Shown here piece by piece: positions 15,665 to 59,549 of a DNA stretch of 64,000 nt. A model generated the notes under the pieces. That model made no database searches. It was not told the origin of the DNA and saw only the letters and a program-made list of their open reading frames with translations. Position 1 is the stretch's first letter; the number at the start of each line of letters is the position of its first letter. The position numbers and the translations under genes were made by a program. Origin of the DNA: Candidatus Rokuibacteriota bacterium (GTDB lineage Bacteria; Methylomirabilota; Methylomirabilia; Rokubacteriales; CSP1-6); contig QHSU01000087.1 in NCBI GenBank assembly GCA_003220535.1, positions 3,273 through 67,272 of the forward strand, written 5' to 3'.

Positions 15665-15681
15665 ACCTGTCTCCACGCGTC

Positions 15682-15841
15682 GAGCCCGCAGGGGCGCTGC
15701 GGGGTGGGGGGCAGCGCGACCACGCCGCACGCGTGCGCAGATCCCGTTGCGGCTGGGCTCCATCCGGGCGCACTCGCTCCGCCGCTCGCTCGGAGGGAAC
15801 GGGTCCCGCTACCCCCCACCCCGCAGCGCCCCCACGGGCTC
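15682..15841. repeat. palindromic intercistronic element, copy 1 (core inverted relative to copies 2, 3, 5, 6)
   Basis: Arms at 15682-15721 and 15802-15841 are nearly perfectly complementary. The core carries the family blocks GACCCGTTCCC / CCGGATGGAGCCCAGCC / GCGCACGCGTGCGGCGTGGTC on the minus strand. Confidence 0.85.
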
Positions 15842-15904
15842 CACTCGTGCAACGCAGACTTACGACGTAGGACGGATGCTGTGACCGGTTCTAAGCGAGT
15901 CAAG

Positions 15905-16070
15905 GGAGGGCGGGGGGCAGAGCGGCGGGGCGTGGGGAGGGGTGCTGGGACCCGTTGCCTCCATGCACGCGGCGGACGCGATGCGCCCGGATGGAGCCCA
16001 GCCACAGCGGGTTCTGCGCACGCGTGCGGCGTGGTCCCCACACCCCGGCTCGGCGCGCACGCGGCCCCAC
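15905..16070. repeat. palindromic intercistronic element, copy 2 (arms partly eroded)
   Basis: The core at 15949-16035 has all three conserved blocks on the plus strand. The inner arm GGGGTGCTGGGACC pairs with GGTCCCCACACCCC, but the outer arms carry an insertion. Boundaries are approximate. Confidence 0.75.
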
Positions 16071-16114
16071 GCATGAGCGGTGATGCGGTCAGTTCCATGC
16101 ACGCGACGCGAGGG

Positions 16115-16278
16115 CTCGGGGCATGGGGGTGGCGCGGGGTGAGGGGTGCGGGGACCCGTTCCCTCCATGCGCTCGGCGGGCGTGCCGCGCCCGGATGGAG
16201 CCCAGCCGCAATGGGATCCGCGCACGCGTGCAGCGTGGTCCCCACACCCCTCACCCCGCGCCACCCCCGTGCCCCGAG
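16115..16278. repeat. palindromic intercistronic element, copy 3
   Basis: The 42-nt arms at 16115-16156 and 16237-16278 are complementary at 40/42 positions. The core has all three blocks on the plus strand. The element ends 14 nt from the livH-like stop. Confidence 0.9.
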
Positions 16279-16292
16279 TCCGGTGCGTGCGG

Positions 16293-23131: not shown

Positions 23132-23310
23132 GGTGCCCCACAGGGCCAGGCGGGCGGGGTGCGGGCGGGGTCGCTCGGACCACGCCGCACGCGCGCGCTG
23201 CTCCGGGGCGGCTGGGCTCCATCCGGCGGCGCCACGCCCGTCGCCGCGTTGAGGGAACGGGTCCGTTCGACCCCGCCCGCACGCCACCCGCCCGGCCCAG
23301 TGGGGTGTCC
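23132..23310. repeat. palindromic intercistronic element, copy 4 (core inverted; same subfamily as copy 6)
   Basis: The arms at 23132-23181 and 23260-23310 are largely complementary. The core blocks read on the minus strand (variant GCGCGCGCGTGCGGCGTGGTC). The left end lies 5 nt from the livM-like start codon. Confidence 0.85.
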
Positions 23311-31672: not shown

Positions 31673-31718
31673 GATGGCCTACGCTGCGACGGCCGTGGCT
31701 GGATCAAGGTGGGGAGGG

Positions 31719-31910
31719 GTAGACACAGAGTCGTTGTGACAGGGCTGGGGGCGGAGTGCGAGAGGGGTGCGCCGACCCGTTCCCTTCATGCGAACGCCGT
31801 GCGCGACGCTTCCAGATGGAGCCCAGACGCGAAGGGCCATGCGCACGCGTGCCGCGTGGTCGGCGCACCCCTCTCGCACTCCGCCCCCAGCCCGGCCGCA
31901 ACGTGTCTAC
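31719..31910. repeat. palindromic intercistronic element, copy 5
   Basis: The 36-nt arms at 31742-31777 and 31858-31893 are complementary at 36/36 positions. An outer GTAGACAC/GTGTCTAC pair (31719-31726 / 31903-31910) overlaps the stop codon of the binding-protein gene. Core blocks are on the plus strand (variant CCAGATGGAGCCCAGAC). Confidence 0.9.
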
Positions 31911-33121
31911 TTCTTCACCAACTCGCAGCCGCCCTGATCGAGCGGCCGGAATGCCTGCTCGGCCGGGATGGTCGCTCGGATCTTGTAGTAGTCCCACGGG
32001 TACTTCGACTCGGCCGGCTTCTTCACCTCAACCAGATATGCCGGATGGATCTTGCGGCCATCGATGCGGACCGTCCCCTTGCCGAAGAGCGGGTCGTCGG
32101 TCGGCAGCTCCTTCATCTTGGCGATGACCTTGGCGCCCTCGTCGCTCTTGAGCGCTTCGACGGCCTTCAGGTAGTGCAACGTCCCGGCGTAGACGCCGGC
32201 GTGGATCATCGTGGGATGGATCCCACGGTTTCGCTCGGCGAAACGTTTGGCGAACGCGCGCGTTTTCTCGTTCAGGTCCCAGTAGAAGGTCTCGGTGAAG
32301 GTCAGTCCCTGAGCCTTCTCGAGGCCGAGCGCGTGCACGTCGGTCAGGAAGACCAGGAGTCCCGCGAAGGTCTGGCCGCCCTTCACGATACCGAACTCGG
32401 CGCCCTGCTTGATGGCGTTGGTGGTGTCGCCGCCGGCGTTGGCCAGGCCGATGATCTTGGCCTTGGAGGCCTGCGCCTGGAGCAGGAACGACGAGAAGTC
32501 CTGCGTGTTGAGCGGATGGCGGACCTTGCCCAGCACCTTGCCGCCGTTCCGGAGGACGACCGCCTCGACGTCGCGCTCGAGGGCGTGGCCGAACGCGTAG
32601 TCGGCGGTGATGAAGAACCAGGTGTCGCCGCCGGTCTTCACGACCGCGTTGCCGGTGCCGTTGGCGAGCGCCCACGTGTCGTACGTCCAGTGGATCGTGT
32701 TGGGCGAGCACGCCTTGCCGGTGAGGTCGGACGTCGCGGCGGAGGAGACGATGAACGCCTTGCCCTTGTCGCGGGTGATCTGGTTGACGGCCAGCGCGAC
32801 GCCCGAGTTGGGCACGTCGAGGATGAGGTCGACCTTCTCGGCGTCGTACCACTGGCGGGCAATCTGTGAGCCGACGTCGGCCTTGTTCTGGTGATCGGCG
32901 AACACGATCTCGACCTTCAGTCCCCTGGCGGCGGCGCCGGAGTCCTCGACGGCCATCCGCGCCGCGACGACCGAGCCCTGACCGGCCAGGTCGGCGTAGA
33001 GGCTCGACTGGTCGTTGAGGACTCCGATCTTGACGACGCCGTCGGAGATCTGCGCCTGCGCCGGACCCACGGCCAGGCTGAGCGCGACGATGAGGAATGT
33101 CAGGACGCGTACGATGATCAT
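31907..33121 (-). CDS. Liv-type ABC substrate-binding protein, module C
   Basis: 404 aa. Signal peptide MIIVRVLTFLIVALSLAVGPAQA, followed by a type-1 periplasmic binding fold (VKIGVLNDQSSLYADLAGQG). Confidence 0.85.
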   Translation of the reverse strand: MIIVRVLTFLIVALSLAVGPAQAQISDGVVKIGVLNDQSSLYADLAGQGSVVAARMAVEDSGAAARGLKVEIVFADHQNKADVGSQIARQWYDAEKVDLILDVPNSGVALAVNQITRDKGKAFIVSSAATSDLTGKACSPNTIHWTYDTWALANGTGNAVVKTGGDTWFFITADYAFGHALERDVEAVVLRNGGKVLGKVRHPLNTQDFSSFLLQAQASKAKIIGLANAGGDTTNAIKQGAEFGIVKGGQTFAGLLVFLTDVHALGLEKAQGLTFTETFYWDLNEKTRAFAKRFAERNRGIHPTMIHAGVYAGTLHYLKAVEALKSDEGAKVIAKMKELPTDDPLFGKGTVRIDGRKIHPAYLVEVKKPAESKYPWDYYKIRATIPAEQAFRPLDQGGCELVKK

Positions 33122-46448: not shown

Positions 46449-47516
46449 CTAGACCGGAACCGTCCAGCCGCGGGTGTCCGGCGCCGTCCCGTACTGGATC
46501 CCGACGATCGCGTCGTAGAGCTTCTGGGTCAGCGGGCCGATCCTGCCTCGGTTGATCACGATCCGCTCGTTTTTGTACGCGAGCTCGCCGACGGGCGAGA
46601 TGACCGCGGCGGTCCCCGTGCCCCAGACCTCGTCGAGCGTCCCCTGGCGCGCGGCCGCGGCGACCTCATCGATCGTCACCGGGCGCTCGCTGACCCGGAG
46701 CCCCCACTCACGCATCAGCGTCAGGGCCGAGTCGCGGGTGACCCCGGCCAGGATGGTTCCGCTGAGCGGCGGCGTGACGACCTCGTCGCCGATTTTCAGC
46801 ATGATGTTCATCGTGCCCACTTCGTCGATGTACTTGCGCTCCCGGCCGTCGAGCCACAGCACCTGGGTGAACCCCGCGTGCTTCGCCTCCTCGGCGGCGT
46901 AGAGGGACGCCGCGTAGTTGACGCCGGTCTTCACGCCGCCCACCCCGCCCTCGACGGCGCGGACGTACTTGTCGACGACGAGGATCTTCACGGGATTCAT
47001 CCCCTCGGGGTAGTACGCGCCGACGGGCGACAGAATCACGTAGTAGATGTAGGACTTCGCCGGCCGAACGCCGAGAAAGGCCTCGCTCGCGATGATGGTC
47101 GGTCTGACGTAGAGGGACGTCCCCACCGTCGCCGGCACCCAGTCTTTCTCGATCCCGACGAGCATCACGAGCGACTTCAGCGCGAGCTCGGGATCGAGCG
47201 GCGGGATGCACAGGCGTCGGGACGACTGGATCAGCCGCTCCACGTGCTTCTGGGGCCGGAAGAGCCGGACCTTGCCGTCCCGGCCGCGGAAGGCCTTGAG
47301 GCCGTCGAACACCGCCTGGGCGTAGTGGAGCACCGCCGCCGCCGGGTCCAGCGGGAACGGCCCGTACGGCTCGACCCGGGGATCGTACCAGCCCTTCTCT
47401 TCCTGGAAGTCCATGACGAACATGTGGTCGGTGAACACGGTCCCGAACGACAGCTCGCTGTCCTTGGGCTTGGGCTTCTTGGTCGTCGCACGGCTGATCC
47501 GGATCGGCTCACTCAT
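46449..47516 (-). CDS. ilvE: branched-chain amino acid aminotransferase
   Basis: 355 aa. FGTVFTDHMF...DPAAAVLHYAQAVFDGLKAFR is typical of the long IlvE subclass (fold type IV). Confidence 0.9.
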   Translation of the reverse strand: MSEPIRISRATTKKPKPKDSELSFGTVFTDHMFVMDFQEEKGWYDPRVEPYGPFPLDPAAAVLHYAQAVFDGLKAFRGRDGKVRLFRPQKHVERLIQSSRRLCIPPLDPELALKSLVMLVGIEKDWVPATVGTSLYVRPTIIASEAFLGVRPAKSYIYYVILSPVGAYYPEGMNPVKILVVDKYVRAVEGGVGGVKTGVNYAASLYAAEEAKHAGFTQVLWLDGRERKYIDEVGTMNIMLKIGDEVVTPPLSGTILAGVTRDSALTLMREWGLRVSERPVTIDEVAAAARQGTLDEVWGTGTAAVISPVGELAYKNERIVINRGRIGPLTQKLYDAIVGIQYGTAPDTRGWTVPV

Positions 47517-47600
47517 CTCATCATCCTCTCACTGGAAGGAGTCCTGCCTGCGGAACACGTGCCGCAGGGACACTGCCTAAGCACCACACTTCCCTTCGCG

Positions 47601-47724
47601 GCGGCCGATCAAAACGACCCAGATGCTAGGCGGCGACTGAGAGCCCGACCGAGGCGTATGCCGCATACGCCGCAGGGAGGGCCGAAGGAGCCAACGACGC
47701 AGATGGGTCGTTTTCATCGGCCGC
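47601..47724 (-). other. structured intergenic element directly after icmA-like
   Basis: The 25-nt arms at 47601-47625 and 47700-47724 are complementary at 22/25 positions. They enclose 74 nt, including a GGCGTATG-CCG-CATACGCC hairpin (47653-47671). The region is locally less GC-rich and shares nothing with the six-copy family. Confidence 0.5.
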
Positions 47725-47728
47725 CCCC

Positions 47729-49348
47729 CTAGAAGATGATCGGCTCGCGGTACAGGCCGAACACCTGACGGTACACGTCCGAGATCTCGCCCAGGCTCAC
47801 GTAGTCCTTCACCGCGTCGATGAGCACCGGCATCACGTTGCGCTGCTCGCGGCACGCCTCGGCCAGCTGTTTGAGCCGCCGCTCGACCTTCGTCGTGTTG
47901 CGCGCCGCCTTGACGCGCCGCACGCGCTCGACCTGCTCGCGCTCGACCGCCGCGTCGATCTTGAGGTAGTTGATCGGGCGCTCCTCCGCCATCACGTACT
48001 TGTTGACGCCGACGACCACTTTTTCCCCACGATCTTCCGCGAGCTGGTAGCGGTACGCGGCGTCCGCGATCTCCCGCTGCGGGTAACCCGCGTCGATCGC
48101 GCGGATCACGCCCCCCATCGCGTCGATCCTCCGGATGTACTCGAGCGCGGCCGCCTCCATCTGGTCCGTGAGCGTCTCCAGGTAGTACGCGCCGCCGAGC
48201 GGGTCGATCGTCAGGGCGGCCCCGGACTCCTCGGCGATGATCTGCTGGGTCCTGAGCGCGACCGTCACCGCCTCTTCGGTCGGCAGCGCCCACGTCTCGT
48301 CGTACGAATTGGTGTGGAGCGACTGCGCGCCGCCCAGCACCGCCGCGAGCGCCTGCAGCGCCACGCGCGCGATGTTGTTGAGGGGCTGCTGGGCGGTCGC
48401 CGAGACGCCGGCCGTCTGGGTATGCGTCCGGAGCCGCATCGACTCGGGCTTCTTGGCGCCGAAGCGCTCCTTGAGGAAGCGCGCCCAGAGGCGCCGCGCC
48501 GCCCGGAGCTTGGCGATCTCCTCGAAGAAATCGTTGTGGATGTCGAAGAAGAAAGAGAGCCGCGGCGCGAAGCTGTCGATGTCGAGCCCGCGGGCGCACG
48601 CGGCCTCGACGTACCCGAGCCCGTCGGCCAGCGTGAACGCGAGCTCCTGCACCGCCGTCGCGCCCGCCTCCCGGATGTGGTAGCCCGAGATCGAGACCGG
48701 ATTGAAGCGCGGAACGTGCTTGGCGGTGAATTCGATCATGTCGACGACGATCCGCACGGCGGGCTCGGGCGGACAAATCCACTCTTTCTGCGCGACGAAC
48801 TCCTTGAGCATGTCGTTCTGCATCGTGCCGCCGACGCGATCCCACGCGACGCCCTGCTTTTCGGCGACCGCCAGGTACATGGCGAGCGCGACCGACGCCG
48901 TGCAGTTGATCGTCATCGACGTGGTGACGTCGCCGAGCGGAATGTCGGCGAACAGCCGCTCGAAATCGTCGAGCGTCGAGATCGACACGCCTTCCTTGCC
49001 GACCTCGCCGCGCGCGCGGGGATGGTCCGCGTCGTAGCCCATCAACGCCGGCATGTCGAACGCCGTCGACAGCCCGGTCTGGCCCTGTTCCAGGAGGTAC
49101 TTGAAGCGGGCGTTGGTGTCCTCGGGCCGCCCGAAGCCGGCGAACATTCGCATCGTCCAGAGCCGGCCCCGGTACATCGTCGGATAGACGCCGCGGGTGA
49201 ACGGATACTCGCCCGGGCGGCCAAGCTTCTCGTCGGGCGACCAGTCGCGGAGGCTCTCGGGCGTGTAGAGCGGCTCGATCGGGATACCCGATAGGGTCTC
49301 GAAGCGCACCGGTCGCTCGGGCCGGCGCTCAGGCTCGGTCATGGCCAC
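47729..49348 (-). CDS. icmA: acyl-CoA mutase large (substrate-binding) subunit, isobutyryl-CoA-mutase-like
   Basis: 539 aa. It has [26 protein letters not shown] and [18 protein letters not shown]. Phe and Gln sit where methylmalonyl-CoA mutase has Tyr89 and Arg207. Confidence 0.8.
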
Positions 49349-56151: not shown

Positions 56152-57102
56152 TCAGCGCCCACCGCGGCGCGCCAGGAGCCGTCGCAGGCGCGGATACGCA
56201 CCCTCGGGAAGGAACAGCACCACCGCGACCAGCAGCACGCCGTACGCGATCAGGTGCGCGCCGGGCAGCCCGCCCTGCCCGAGGTAGAGCCGCGAGAGCT
56301 CGCCGAGCGGCGTGAGGATGAAGGAGCCCAGGATGGGCCCAAGGAGCGTGCCCGCGCCGCCCACGATCGGGCGGATGATGATCTCGACCGAGAGCGGGAT
56401 ACCGAAGAGCGTGTTGGGCTGCAGGGAGAAGAGATAGAACGCGTAGAAGGTCCCGCCCAGACCCGTGAGGAAGGACGAGACGACCATCGCGAGCATCTTG
56501 TACTTGAAGGCGTTCACGCCGAGCGCCTCGGCCGCGGCCTCGTCCTCCCGGATCGCCGCCAGATAGACGCCGAAGCGGCGGCGCTCGATGGCCCAGGCGG
56601 TCGCCGTCGCCGCCAGCATGAGCGCCAGCGCGATGTAGTAGTAGGGGCGGCCGTCCTGGAACTGGAACTGTCGCGGGTCGCCGGTGAAGGTGATGTAGAG
56701 GCCGAGCGGGCCGCCGACGGCGTCGATGTTCGAGACCGCGATGCGGCACACCTCGGCGAACGCCACCGTGAGCAGCACGAAGTAGAAGCCGCGCAGACCG
56801 AAGCGGAAGCCGAGATAGCCGATGATCGCGCCGAGCAGCGCCGCCAGCAGGGCGCCGACGAACATGCCGGCCCACGGCGTGAGCCCCTTCTCGATCGACA
56901 GCATCGCCGCCGTGTAGCCGCCCACCCCGACGAAGGCGGCGTGGCCGAGCGACAGCTGGCCCGCGTAGCCCCCCACGATGTTCCACGCCTGCCCGAGGAA
57001 TCCGTAGAAGAAGATCAGGATGAAGATGGTGATCGCGTACGAGCTCAGCACCGCCGGTAGCGCCAGCAGCACCGCGAGCGCGGCGACGACCGCCCATCTC
57101 AC
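56152..57102 (-). CDS. Liv-type ABC permease (LivM-like), module D
   Basis: Trimmed from the 474-aa track ORF to GTG 57102, which overlaps the livH-like TGA (GTGA). About 316 aa. Confidence 0.8.
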   Translation of the reverse strand: MRWAVVAALAVLLALPAVLSSYAITIFILIFFYGFLGQAWNIVGGYAGQLSLGHAAFVGVGGYTAAMLSIEKGLTPWAGMFVGALLAALLGAIIGYLGFRFGLRGFYFVLLTVAFAEVCRIAVSNIDAVGGPLGLYITFTGDPRQFQFQDGRPYYYIALALMLAATATAWAIERRRFGVYLAAIREDEAAAEALGVNAFKYKMLAMVVSSFLTGLGGTFYAFYLFSLQPNTLFGIPLSVEIIIRPIVGGAGTLLGPILGSFILTPLGELSRLYLGQGGLPGAHLIAYGVLLVAVVLFLPEGAYPRLRRLLARRGGR

Positions 57103-57971
57103 GACGGTCGCTTGCCGAAGAGGCCCACCGGCCGGAACAGCAAGATCACGATCAGGAGCGAGAAGCTGAACAGCTCCTTGAGCGAGGGCTTGAGGAACAC
57201 GGCGCCGAGCGACTCGGCGAGCGACACCAGCAGGCCGCCGACGAACGCGCCGAGGAGGCTTCCCATGCCGCCGATGATCACGATGTTGAACGAGGTCACC
57301 GACAGGGACAGCCCGGTCGGTGGCTGGAACGGGAGGATCGAGGAGACCAGGGCGCCCGCGGCGCCCACGCAGGCCGCGCCGACGCCGAACGCCACCGCGT
57401 AGACGCGGCGCACGTCGGCGCCGATCACCAAGGCACCGTAGGTGTTGTCGGCGGCGGCGCGGATCGTCCGCCCGAGGTCGGTGCGGTAGAGGAACCCCCA
57501 GAGGGCTGTCGTGAGCGCGACCGCGACCACGAACGTCACGAGCCGAGCGACGTCCACGAAGACGGGCCCGAGCCACACGGTCGCGGCCGCGAGCGGCGAC
57601 CGCACCCGCGTGGGCTCGGGCCCGAACGCGACCAGGGCCACGTTCTCCAGCACGAGCGCGACCCCGAGCATCAGGAGAATCTGCATCTCGTGGGGCGCGT
57701 CGATGATCCGGTCGACGAGCGCGCGCTGCACGAGGAGCCCGAGCGCGAAGAGCACGGCCGCGCAGACGATGAAGCCCAGATAGGGATCGACACCCGCGCC
57801 CGTGGCGAGGAGGTACGCGAGGTACATGCCCCAGACCATCATGTCGCCGTGGGCGAAGTTCACCACGCGCATCACGCCGAAGATCAGGGTGAGGCCCACG
57901 GCCATCAGGCTGTACACGCCGCCGAACAGGACGCCGCTGACGATCCCCTGCAGAACCAGCGTCAGATCCAC
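57099..57971 (-). CDS. Liv-type ABC permease (LivH-like), module D
   Basis: 290 aa with a GTG start. It has VLQGIVSGVLFGGVYSLMAVGLTLIFGVMRVVNFAHGD. Confidence 0.9.
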   Translation of the reverse strand: MDLTLVLQGIVSGVLFGGVYSLMAVGLTLIFGVMRVVNFAHGDMMVWGMYLAYLLATGAGVDPYLGFIVCAAVLFALGLLVQRALVDRIIDAPHEMQILLMLGVALVLENVALVAFGPEPTRVRSPLAAATVWLGPVFVDVARLVTFVVAVALTTALWGFLYRTDLGRTIRAAADNTYGALVIGADVRRVYAVAFGVGAACVGAAGALVSSILPFQPPTGLSLSVTSFNIVIIGGMGSLLGAFVGGLLVSLAESLGAVFLKPSLKELFSFSLLIVILLFRPVGLFGKRPS

Positions 57972-57980
57972 GCCGACCCC

Positions 57981-58185
57981 GACTCAGGGCCGCAAGGGCG
58001 GGTCCAGTGGGGCGGGCGCGGTGCCGGGCGGGGTCGTCGAGACCCGTTCCCGCAACGCGGCGACGGGCGCACCGCGCCCGGATGGAGCCCAGCCGCCAAG
58101 GGTCTGCGAACGCGTGCGGCGTGGTCGAGCGACCCCGCCCGGCACCGCGCCCGCCCCACTGGACCCGCCCTCGCCGCCCTCGGTC
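57981..58185. repeat. palindromic intercistronic element, copy 6 (longest arms)
   Basis: The arm blocks at 57995-58036 and 58130-58171 are complementary at 42/42 positions, with imperfect extensions to 57981 and 58185. Core blocks are on the plus strand. The element fills the binding-protein-to-livH spacer to within 3 nt of the stop and 9 nt of the start. Confidence 0.9.
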
Positions 58186-58188
58186 GTC

Positions 58189-59457
58189 CTAAGCCTTGGG
58201 CCGCGGGAAGACGAATTTCTGCAGCGCGGCCTCGCGGGGCCAGACGGCGACGGGCTTCTGGCCCAGGATCTGGATCATCGTCGGGATCGCGTTGGCGTTG
58301 TCGCCGAGCTCGTTGAAGACGATCGGACCGCCGTACTGCATGAGGCCGCCGGCGTAGTTCGTCTTCTTCATAGAGTCGGCGATCGCGTCGGGATCGACGA
58401 GGCTCGCGGCGCGCTCGAGGATGTCGGCGATGACGAACACGGCGTCGTAGGAATAGCCCGAGTTCGTGTCGAACGTCTTTCCGCCCGAGCGTCGCCGGAA
58501 CTCCTCGCCGACCGTGGTGGTCTTCGGGTTCTTGAAGTTCGGCCACGGCACGCTCGTCAGCACGTACTCGAGGTCCTGCTTGAGCTGGGCCAGCTGGCCC
58601 GCCTCGTAGAGGCCGGGACCGCCGGGGCCGACGATGCCCATCGTCTCGACCCGCTGCTTCGCGATCTCGGGAAGCAGCAGCAGCGCGGAGGCCGGGCGCG
58701 TGATCGGCGCGATCACGTCGGGCTTGGCCGCCTTCGCCCGCGACACCTCGGTGGCAAGGTCGGACGGCGGCTCCGGCCACGGAATGACCTCGACGATCTC
58801 CCACGACGGGTTGGCCGCCTTGTGGGCCGCCTGGAAGCCACGCGCCTGGTTCTGTCCGAAGAGGTCGTTGCAGTACATCAGCACGACCCGCTTCGGCGAC
58901 ACGTTGGCTTCCTTGAAGATCTCGATGAAGTACTGCACGGCCTTGCGGCCGAAGCTCGAGCCCGTCGGGAAGTTGCGGTAGACGTACTGCACCTTCTGCT
59001 CGCCGTCCCTGACCGACTTGGCGACGTTGGCCGTGATCGGATCGGCCGCGGCGATGTCGATGAGGAACGGGACGCGCTTCTGCTGGGCGACCGACACCAT
59101 TGCGCTCGTGGATCCCGAGTCGAACGACCCCAGCAGCATCTGGGCGCCCTGGTTGACGACGCGCTCGGCCTCGACGCGACCGTTCTCGGGCTTGGTCTGC
59201 GTGTCGCCGACGATCAGCTCGAGCTTGATCCCGCCCTTCGCCTTGATGCCTCCGGCCGCGTTGACCGCACCGACCGCCATCTGAGCGCCGAGTCGGCAAG
59301 CCTGCCCCGGCTCGGCGAGCGCGCCCGTCATCGGATGAATGGCGCCGATCTTGAACGTCTTCGGTTGCGCGCGGAGCGGGAGCGGAAATCCCACGACGGC
59401 GGCGCCACCGGCAGTCGTCTTGAGAAACGTGCGACGGGTCAGTCGGTGCGTCGTCAT
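58189..59457 (-). CDS. Liv-type ABC substrate-binding protein with Tat-like signal, module D
   Basis: Trimmed to ATG 59457 (MTTHRLTRRTFLKTTAGGAAVVGFPLPLRA) with a GAGGAGG SD; 422 aa. Confidence 0.85.
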   Translation of the reverse strand: MTTHRLTRRTFLKTTAGGAAVVGFPLPLRAQPKTFKIGAIHPMTGALAEPGQACRLGAQMAVGAVNAAGGIKAKGGIKLELIVGDTQTKPENGRVEAERVVNQGAQMLLGSFDSGSTSAMVSVAQQKRVPFLIDIAAADPITANVAKSVRDGEQKVQYVYRNFPTGSSFGRKAVQYFIEIFKEANVSPKRVVLMYCNDLFGQNQARGFQAAHKAANPSWEIVEVIPWPEPPSDLATEVSRAKAAKPDVIAPITRPASALLLLPEIAKQRVETMGIVGPGGPGLYEAGQLAQLKQDLEYVLTSVPWPNFKNPKTTTVGEEFRRRSGGKTFDTNSGYSYDAVFVIADILERAASLVDPDAIADSMKKTNYAGGLMQYGGPIVFNELGDNANAIPTMIQILGQKPVAVWPREAALQKFVFPRPKA

Positions 59458-59549
59458 CACGAGCCTCCTCGAAGTGGTCGGCGCATCACGAACGAGCGGG
59501 TGGCGCGCTCGGGGCCGTCGCCACGAAACAGCGCTGCGGCACCGGAGCC

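Follow-up and report, generated by a model that had tools for sequence, protein, structure and literature searches.

A 64,000-nt window of DNA from Candidatus Rokuibacteriota (assembly GCA_003220535.1, contig QHSU01000087.1) contains six copies of a hairpin element. Copy 6, which occupies the spacer between a Liv-type binding-protein gene and the livH-type permease gene downstream of it, is a member of a dispersed intergenic palindromic repeat that is confined to one family-level clade of the order Rokubacteriales. At orthologous loci the arms of these hairpins diverge like the DNA that flanks them, yet they stay about 95% complementary within each copy, and changes on one arm are mirrored on the other, indels and transversions included. 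We consider it fairly probable that the mirrored changes come mainly from templated copying of one arm onto the other, i.e. from template switching, and that the fold of the core-sense strand is selected as well. No description of this Rokubacterial repeat was found in the literature searched, so that the hairpin repeat of soil Rokubacteria is apparently undescribed so far.

Structure and position of copy 6

All coordinates are positions in the 64-kb window, with + denoting its forward strand. Copy 6 and the two genes next to it comprise the following features:

57980-58036, + strand: 5' arm, G-rich, with a perfect block at 57995-58036 and an imperfect outer part of 15 nt
58037-58040, + strand: linker TCGA, within the imperfectly paired zone that separates the long stem from basal GACC/GGTC pairs
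58041-58127, sense on +: conserved, asymmetric core of 87 nt, GACCCGTTCCC...GCCCGGATGGAGCCCAGCCGC...ACGCGTGCGGCGTGGTC (nhmmer match C109:61313-61399; covariance-model match 58024-58142)
58130-58186, + strand: 3' arm, C-rich, with a perfect block at 58130-58171
58189-59460, - strand: upstream cistron, Liv-type periplasmic binding protein (Peripla_BP_6, twin-arginine translocation signal)
57099-57971, - strand: downstream cistron, livH-type permease (BPD_transp_2)

The block at 57995-58036 is the exact reverse complement of 58130-58171, and the 42 of 42 paired positions that an earlier note on this DNA had reported are thus confirmed by direct reading. The perfect run is exactly 42 long, with T/G as the next inner pair, and a repeat finder extends the inverted repeat imperfectly to 57 nt per arm (57980-58036 and 58130-58186, 93% complementary), with 93 nt between the arms. 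The element was also said to fill its spacer almost completely, and indeed only 2-3 nt remain to the TAG stop of the binding-protein gene (CTA on +, 58189-58191) and 8-9 nt to the GTG start of livH (CAC on +, 57969-57971). Note that the core of copy 6 is antisense to the liv operon.

Folded as RNA, copy 6 reaches -179.8 kcal/mol on the + strand (z = -12.0) and -184.8 kcal/mol on the - strand (z = -11.5), where z-scores refer to dinucleotide shuffles, none of which in 200 folded as well. Thirteen inverted repeats of at least 25 nt with arms no more than 300 nt apart were found in the window; the six longest, all of at least 45 nt, are the copies of the hairpin family, and the remaining seven measure 25-36 nt.

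A dispersed family of intergenic hairpins

A search of the 7.18-Mb, 68% G+C assembly with a profile of the core (nhmmer) returned 47 copies, 45 of them full-length. Alignment of the six copies in the window reveals conservation of an asymmetric centre of ~87 nt, with arms that vary among the copies. Each unit of the family, about 170-210 nt in size, consists of the 87-nt core between copy-specific arms of 35-60 nt, G-rich on the 5' side and C-rich on the 3' side, an order that holds for either strand. Within the copies of this genome the arms pair with 1852 matches, 168 mismatches and 73 gapped nucleotides. Between copies the likeness of the arms is limited to the inner ~15 nt, and no part of the element varies more than their outer ends.

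With a covariance model, the family was found in all 17 genomes of the genus (8-55 copies each) and in 47 of 151 genomes of the order Rokubacteriales, which represent 18 of 53 genera and all belong to one family-level clade (f1); the other families of the order yielded no copies in this 151-genome search. Several of the covariance-model matches lie at contig ends, and some contig breaks in Rokubacterial metagenome-assembled genomes may plausibly be due to the repeat.

Genes were called by codon usage, with a caller trained on open reading frames that show the signature GC3 > GC1 > GC2. Except for C133:50288 at a contig end, none of the 45 full-length copies lies inside a called gene. The contexts are tandem for 25 copies, convergent for 14 and divergent for 4 (4 of 43). 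Between tandem genes, 18 cores run antisense to the genes and 7 in sense, which rules out a fixed orientation relative to transcription. The neighbouring genes are diverse, and a specific link to Liv transporters was rejected since a Liv-type neighbour occurs at only 9 of 45 copies genome-wide, an enrichment and not a rule.

The orientation of the core goes along with the GC skew of its surroundings (±30 kb): 32 of 44 copies have C>G on their core-sense strand (Fisher p = 0.006; 24 versus 8 neighbourhoods). This association is fragile, holding in only 15 of the 25 copies where |skew| >= 0.008; were it real, it would hint at a preferred orientation with respect to replication. Tandem arrangements of the element itself also occur. 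At C60:59843-60371 three copies stand head-to-tail with a period of ~182 nt, the inner units being without a proper second arm, and copies 1-3 of the window (15674-16281) form another such cluster, with mixed core orientations.

Co-evolution of the arms

Copies 4 and 6 had been reported to differ by a paired indel, an extra C on one arm of copy 6 being matched by an extra G on the other. The strings in question are located as claimed, GTGCCGGGCGGGG (58021-58033) pairing with CCCCGCCCGGCAC (58133-58145) in copy 6 and GTGCGGGCGGGG (23159-23170) with CCCCGCCCGCAC (23271-23282) in copy 4, and the paired indel is both real and general. At orthologous loci we counted 26 mirrored indels, each pair being of the same length, in the same species and at mirrored positions; they measure 1-5 nt, lengths of 3, 4 and 5 included, where each arm has ~60 indels. 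The suggestion that copies 4 and 6 form a subfamily fared less well. The two do have CAACGCGGCGACGGGCG and similar inner arms in common, but the grouping is weak, as they are not mutual nearest relatives genome-wide: the nearest relative of copy 6 is C147:149439 (88%), with copy 4 in third place (85%), and that of copy 4 is C94:20897 (87%).

Orthologous loci provide a stronger test of arm co-evolution than the paralogous copies 4 and 6. When 153 copies and their flanks were compared all against all, 26 orthologous groups emerged, with 46 minimum-spanning-tree comparisons in which the base pairs of the arms were classified as follows:

Unchanged base pairs: 1240
Both sides changed, still Watson-Crick: 114
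Both sides changed, pair broken: 7
Single change, Watson-Crick to wobble: 43
Single change, Watson-Crick to mismatch: 39

A further 539 pair positions were in different register between orthologues and 177 were unaligned, and these stayed unclassified. The compensated doubles exceed the single changes, 114 versus 82, whereas by a rough estimate no more than a handful of doubles would be restored by independent evolution at ~11% divergence per site. When 108 copies are aligned with the covariance model, 95% of the arm helix is paired, and for the structure as a whole 96% of cells are paired, compared with 35-51% when partners are slid against each other. Sixteen of 20 arm pairs vary on both sides in this alignment, and the arm helix contains 376 double-change cells, versus 101 ± 9 in shuffles (none of 500 reached the observed value) and 36-50 with slid partners. 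Arm complementarity is thus actively kept, as the earlier note had proposed from two copies, and in the larger sample it is a clear excess of compensatory changes that is found, not an accumulation of mismatches without one.

Templated copying as the probable source of mirrored changes

The same note took paired changes as direct evidence for selection on the hairpin. Here the data lead elsewhere, as the mirrored multi-base indels, the mutational spectrum and the divergence of the arms fit templated arm copying instead. Among the compensated doubles 45 are of transition type and 69 (61%) include a transversion; the resulting ratio of 0.65 is that of the flanks (0.65), the arms overall having 0.61. 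Divergence amounts to 0.195 in the arms, 0.188 in the flanks and 0.12 in the core. The combination of mirrored indels, a flank-like spectrum and unslowed arms argues for templated copying rather than two independent mutations, and because a transversion double cannot pass via a wobble pair, the two-step wobble route is closed to 69 of the 114. As copying from arm to arm yields paired changes in one step and without selection, paired changes alone do not prove selection.

In the proposed mechanism, one arm would serve as the template for the other during replication or repair. Such intra-element template switching, or quasipalindrome correction, would produce mirrored changes mostly in one step, with no need for two independent mutations. 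Template switching in quasipalindromes homogenises and extends the arms of inverted repeats (PMC7202029, PMC8604942, PMC8794818), and both the creation and the repair of stems by this route are documented (PMC8794818). Among instantaneous compensatory changes in rRNA, 61% are of transition type (PMC8794818). Quasipalindrome correction by short-range template switch (PMC7202029; PMC8794818; PMC8604942) resembles the behavior of the Rokubacterial element in its one-step homogenisation of arms, its mirrored substitutions and indels and its growth of stems. It differs in being a mutational process and not an element family, and it explains the pairing, but not the conservation of the core, the strand-biased mismatches or the spread of the element. 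From these sequence patterns we infer that template switching is the main source of the mirrored changes.

The classical alternative is compensatory evolution in a functional RNA stem or cruciform, where two independent mutations occur and the second is fixed for restoring the pair. It would account for the large excess of compensated changes, 43 of the 82 singles lead from Watson-Crick to wobble pairs as intermediates should, both double changes between copy 6 and its orthologue L021 are of transition type, and the G·T excess on one strand that is described below indicates that pairing quality matters. Nevertheless we regard this route as an unlikely principal source. Twenty-six mirrored indels of equal length and direction and of up to 5 nt would be very improbable if they were independent, the share of transversions among compensated doubles and a spectrum equal to that of the flanks speak against it, and stems that evolve in two steps should be slowed, although these arms are as divergent as their flanks.

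Signs of selection on one strand

If template switching shapes the arms, the mismatches that persist in the stems can still reveal whether one strand is distinguished from the other. In this genome, mismatches at 10-50 nt from the core, read on the core-sense strand, comprise 44 G·T and 16 A·C (p = 4e-4), and the bias persists without two recurrent positions (35:15). It was replicated in 104 copies from 16 other genomes, with 61:22 at 10-39 nt from the core (p = 2e-5), so that both sets of genomes together give 105 G·T and 38 A·C. When the mismatches are counted relative to the flanking mRNA instead, the bias is gone (21:16). Transcription of the neighbouring genes was rejected as its cause, as the ratio of G·T to A·C has the same sign in tandem contexts with the core in sense (16:3) and in antisense (13:5); in convergent contexts it is 11:5. 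Replication-linked deamination is an unlikely cause as well, given that the core-sense strand tends to lie on the C>G strand, for which the opposite bias is predicted; the association with skew is itself weak.

Strand-symmetric mutation or a symmetric cruciform would give a ratio of 1:1, and the observed asymmetry therefore points to the fold of the core-sense single strand as the form that matters. In the simplest reading, it is this fold, be it of RNA or of single-stranded DNA, that selection appears to act on. A second distinct feature is an imperfect zone beside the core. Pairing falls to 65-83% at 7-9 nt from the core, and columns 16-19 and 112-114 are unpaired in 21-34 of the 108 aligned copies. 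The zone is present in many copies and separates the long stem from the basal GGACC/GGTCC pairs. It is the G·T strand excess, the slower core and the persistence of this imperfect zone, taken together, that indicate selection.

No fold is claimed for the core itself, since the putative helices there change on one side only. Neither RNAalifold nor a mutual-information scan across 152 copies detected a core-internal pair that covaries on both sides; the one exception, a signal of 2 bp at columns 45-46 and 71-72, is doubtful. In putative core helices (columns 27/45, 28/44 and 66/78), U·G is conserved on the core-sense strand (e.g. U·G 87 versus U-A 18; U·G 97 versus U-A 10). On the other strand these pairs would be A·C mismatches, which fits the polarity seen in the arms, but none of them varies on both sides.

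These observations bear on the view that the element is a selfish or junk palindrome devoid of function, which template switching alone would keep perfect and which would persist because it is hard to lose. Arms that match the flanks in divergence and in mutation spectrum are what this view expects; the unfixed orientation relative to neighbours (18 antisense, 7 sense), the diversity of these neighbours with their 9 Liv-type cases among 45, and the finding of no RNA family, promoter or terminator likewise agree with it. It leaves unexplained, on the other hand, why the core evolves more slowly (0.12) than arms and flanks (0.19), why mismatches are strand-asymmetric, as symmetric mutation would not make them, and why an imperfect zone persists between perfect stem segments. 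Copies moreover avoid divergent promoter regions (4 of 43), and the same site has been kept in 14 species. Long perfect palindromes are prone to deletion. We therefore judge an element without any function to be improbable.

The copy 6 locus across species

Across the genus the livH orthologues share 86-91% amino-acid identity. In 13 other species the spacer before livH likewise holds a core, oriented as in copy 6, which brings the species with copy 6 to 14. The arms of these orthologues are species-specific, yet each pair is 88-100% complementary. A scan with the binding protein as query yielded 48 loci, and spacers were read in the 43 whose locus includes livH. Where the binding-protein orthologue has at least 85% identity, the spacer measures 185-369 nt and contains the core, with a single exception. 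At identities of 83% or less, 16 of 28 spacers are only 4-10 nt long (e.g. TGACG or TAGCGCG), and the other 12, of 17-218 nt, are without a core. From the core in the spacers of close orthologues and the short spacers in distant ones it follows that copy 6 was inserted where the cistrons once nearly abutted, at a junction of just 4-8 nt. The insertion is old and has been passed on vertically, in constant orientation, to at least 14 species. The insertion split formerly abutting cistrons of a transporter operon and left a very stable hairpin directly after the binding-protein gene.

The paired +1/+1 indel of copy 6 is common to L021 and L022, whereas the spacing of copy 4 is found in L019, in other orthologues and in the family consensus. 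Most simply, the indel is derived in the copy 6 lineage.

Several of the spacers without a complete element have a structure of their own. The exception among close orthologues (L133:2770-2822, 86%) is a spacer of 53 nt with short complementary ends, GCTCGCC...GGCGAG, and looks like the remnant of a deleted element. In another genus, L119:2365-2467, a locus found with livH, and likewise L159 and L163 from the binding-protein scan have a mini-hairpin of 105 nt at the same junction, with a stem of ~31-35 bp that is fully paired in L159 and a loop of 20-30 nt in which just both ends of the core are left (GACCACG...ACGGGTC). Its arms are complementary without the core, and it may have arisen by loss of the core or may represent a precursor. 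At L139:1259-1476 a different long hairpin occupies the junction, with arms of ~77 nt, a near-perfect inner stem of ~30 bp and a centre that is not matched by the core profile. The junction between binding protein and livH may be a hot spot for hairpin elements.

One further observation concerns the growth of the stem. The stretch of ~14 nt that directly follows the binding-protein stop (GACGACCGAGGGCG, 58187-58200) resembles, at 11 of 14 positions, the whole spacer of the empty site L120:1487-1503 (GATTACCGAGCGCG). In copy 6 the GACGACCGAGGGCG stretch forms the outer part of one arm, and an inverted copy of it lies beside the livH start. Possibly the stem lengthened outward as flanking DNA was copied to its other side.

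A hot-spot junction would also allow for repeated replacement, where other copies overwrite the resident element or insert there anew, and arms differ by donor, not by co-evolution in place. Two lines of evidence agree with this: L013 groups with L021 and L022 by its arms (90-93%) though L023 is closer to them by livH, and other genera hold different hairpins at the junction, the mini-hairpin of L119, L159 and L163 and the unrelated long one of L139. However, all 14 species have one orientation, no two copies in this genome share arms save for tandem or neighbouring duplicates, so that no donor is visible, and 26 different loci behave alike; the livH tree on which the grouping of L013 is judged has low support (0.3-0.9). 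Replacement as the general explanation is, in our view, very unlikely.

Points weighing against templated copying with selection on one strand

Having considered these alternatives, we retain template switching together with selection on the core-sense fold as the preferred interpretation. A number of points nevertheless weigh against it. Template switching rests on patterns, and replacement of a whole element by another copy would give mirrored changes too; in keeping with this, the grouping of arm types at the copy 6 locus agrees only in part with the livH tree, at its support of 0.3-0.9. The flanks are largely coding, so that flank-like divergence of the arms does not equal a neutral rate. 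Orthologous copies are not fully independent samples, and alignment limits place the 539 off-register and 177 unaligned pair positions outside the classification. Copying of arms that is indiscriminate should erase the imperfect zone beside the core, which implies either that copying is patchy or that selection restores the zone. In the set of 104 copies, the G·T excess is absent beyond ~40 nt from the core. As to the form that is selected, metatranscriptome contigs are sparse and lie on livH and the binding-protein gene, none of them spanning copy 6, which gives a single-stranded form no direct support; and between 57800 and 58400 there is no sigma-70-like promoter, no terminator-like site and no T run after either arm.

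Transcripts and possible function

One metatranscriptome contig of 198 nt (run X24, depth ~6) matches 58081-58136, the 3' half of the core, with 8 differences in 56 nt. It starts inside the core and runs on into a different arm and flank, and it therefore derives from a different copy or a different organism; either a transcript or carried-over DNA may be its source. An intrinsic, Rho-independent terminator was rejected for copy 6, whose G+C-rich stem lacks a T/U tract. Across the whole window Rfam 15 gave no match at gathering thresholds, the best hit below threshold being CRISPR-DR20 (E = 0.15, 19.7 bits versus a threshold of 42 bits).

REP elements sit in malE-malF and hisJ-hisQ, where they protect the upstream mRNA. 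The wobble bias of the Rokubacterial element follows the core and not the operon, and the core of copy 6 is antisense; the bias thus does not reflect stabilisation of the operon mRNA. Speculatively, the selected form would be a core-sense single-stranded hairpin, either a stable RNA or a single-stranded DNA intermediate that is recognised by some protein, and an element within an operon, as at copy 6, might uncouple two formerly abutting cistrons. A more far-reaching idea, which we put forward only tentatively and hold to be less likely than not to prove correct, is that the family represents a new genetic unit that is active as a single folded strand of fixed polarity: a Rokubacterial non-coding RNA with an 87-nt apical domain on a freely varying stem, or a substrate for an enzyme acting on single-stranded DNA, the arms of which are rewritten together by template switching.

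Other copies in the window

All six copies in the window lie inside liv-type ABC transporter operons, the remaining five at the following positions:

23136-23305: copy 4, core sense on -, between livH-like and livM-like genes
31716-31919: copy 5, core sense on +, between a second binding-protein gene and its livH
15674-16281: copies 1-3 in tandem, core sense on -, + and +, between livH-like and livM-like genes

An unrelated inverted repeat (27 nt, 89% complementary, arms 72 nt apart) occupies 47600-47725, flanked by the genes at 46449-47516 and 47729-49348.

Relation to known repeats

The repetitive extragenic palindromic (REP) sequences, bacterial interspersed mosaic elements (BIME) and REPINs of Enterobacteria and Pseudomonas (PMC3116915, PMC3337134) are similar to the Rokubacterial element in being dispersed, non-coding and intergenic, with tens of copies per genome and a hairpin of two inverted halves. 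They often stand just past gene ends and inside operons and show long vertical inheritance, and the position of copy 6 is equivalent to that of REP between binding-protein and permease genes. In REPINs, however, the arms (REP sequences) are conserved and the spacer varies, whereas here it is the centre that is conserved, and beyond ~15 nt the arms are specific to each copy. The arms are also longer, 35-60 nt compared with ~20-25 nt in REP, and a GTAG motif occurs in only some of them. The RAYT/Y1 transposase (PF01797) gave no matches in this genome, in 16 other genomes of the genus or in the element-bearing genomes G018, G021 and G024, while the same search matched 7 element-free genomes and 6 reference genomes as controls. 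Membership in the REPIN-RAYT system was rejected on both grounds, the absence of PF01797 from every element-bearing genome searched and arms that are not conserved REP sequences.

Miniature inverted-repeat transposable elements (MITEs) such as Correia/NEMIS, ERIC and RUP are likewise small (~170-210 nt), non-coding and multi-copy, with inverted termini and sites that are filled in some lineages and empty in others. In contrast to MITEs, the Rokubacterial element has its least conserved sequence at the termini, and most copies stand at orthologous sites across species, with little recent movement. No parent insertion sequence was identified in a search confined to PF01797, and a comparison of filled and empty sites revealed no clear direct repeat, as a target-site duplication would leave, at copy 6. 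Presence/absence polymorphism at orthologous sites is thus seen, as in MITEs, but conserved termini are not, and membership was rejected.

Integron attC sites, finally, are recognised by structure more than by sequence, with one folded strand active and unpaired bases in the stem important, features that recall the present element. There, conserved boxes form the stem base and the centre is variable; the Rokubacterial element has the reverse arrangement, and it is dispersed and not found in cassette arrays. We place the element among the dispersed intergenic palindromic repeats, and its value is that of a natural system for one-step stem evolution.

Implications

Paired changes in a stem are the standard evidence for a functional RNA structure. 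At the 26 orthologous loci of this family, mirrored substitutions and multi-base indels can arise wholesale, probably by arm-to-arm copying, which bears on how long perfect stems arise and persist (PMC8794818). For covariation-based RNA discovery this is a reason for caution, as covariation in a long inverted repeat need not mean selection. A strand-specific excess of G·T mismatches, by comparison, offers a way to ask from sequence only whether a folded strand is selected on top of the mutational process. For the Rokubacteria, an abundant and uncultivated soil phylum, the family constitutes an unannotated repeat. If it is indeed a unit that acts as a single folded strand while its arms are rewritten together, it would be a natural system in which one-step compensatory stem evolution can be measured at dozens of orthologous loci.

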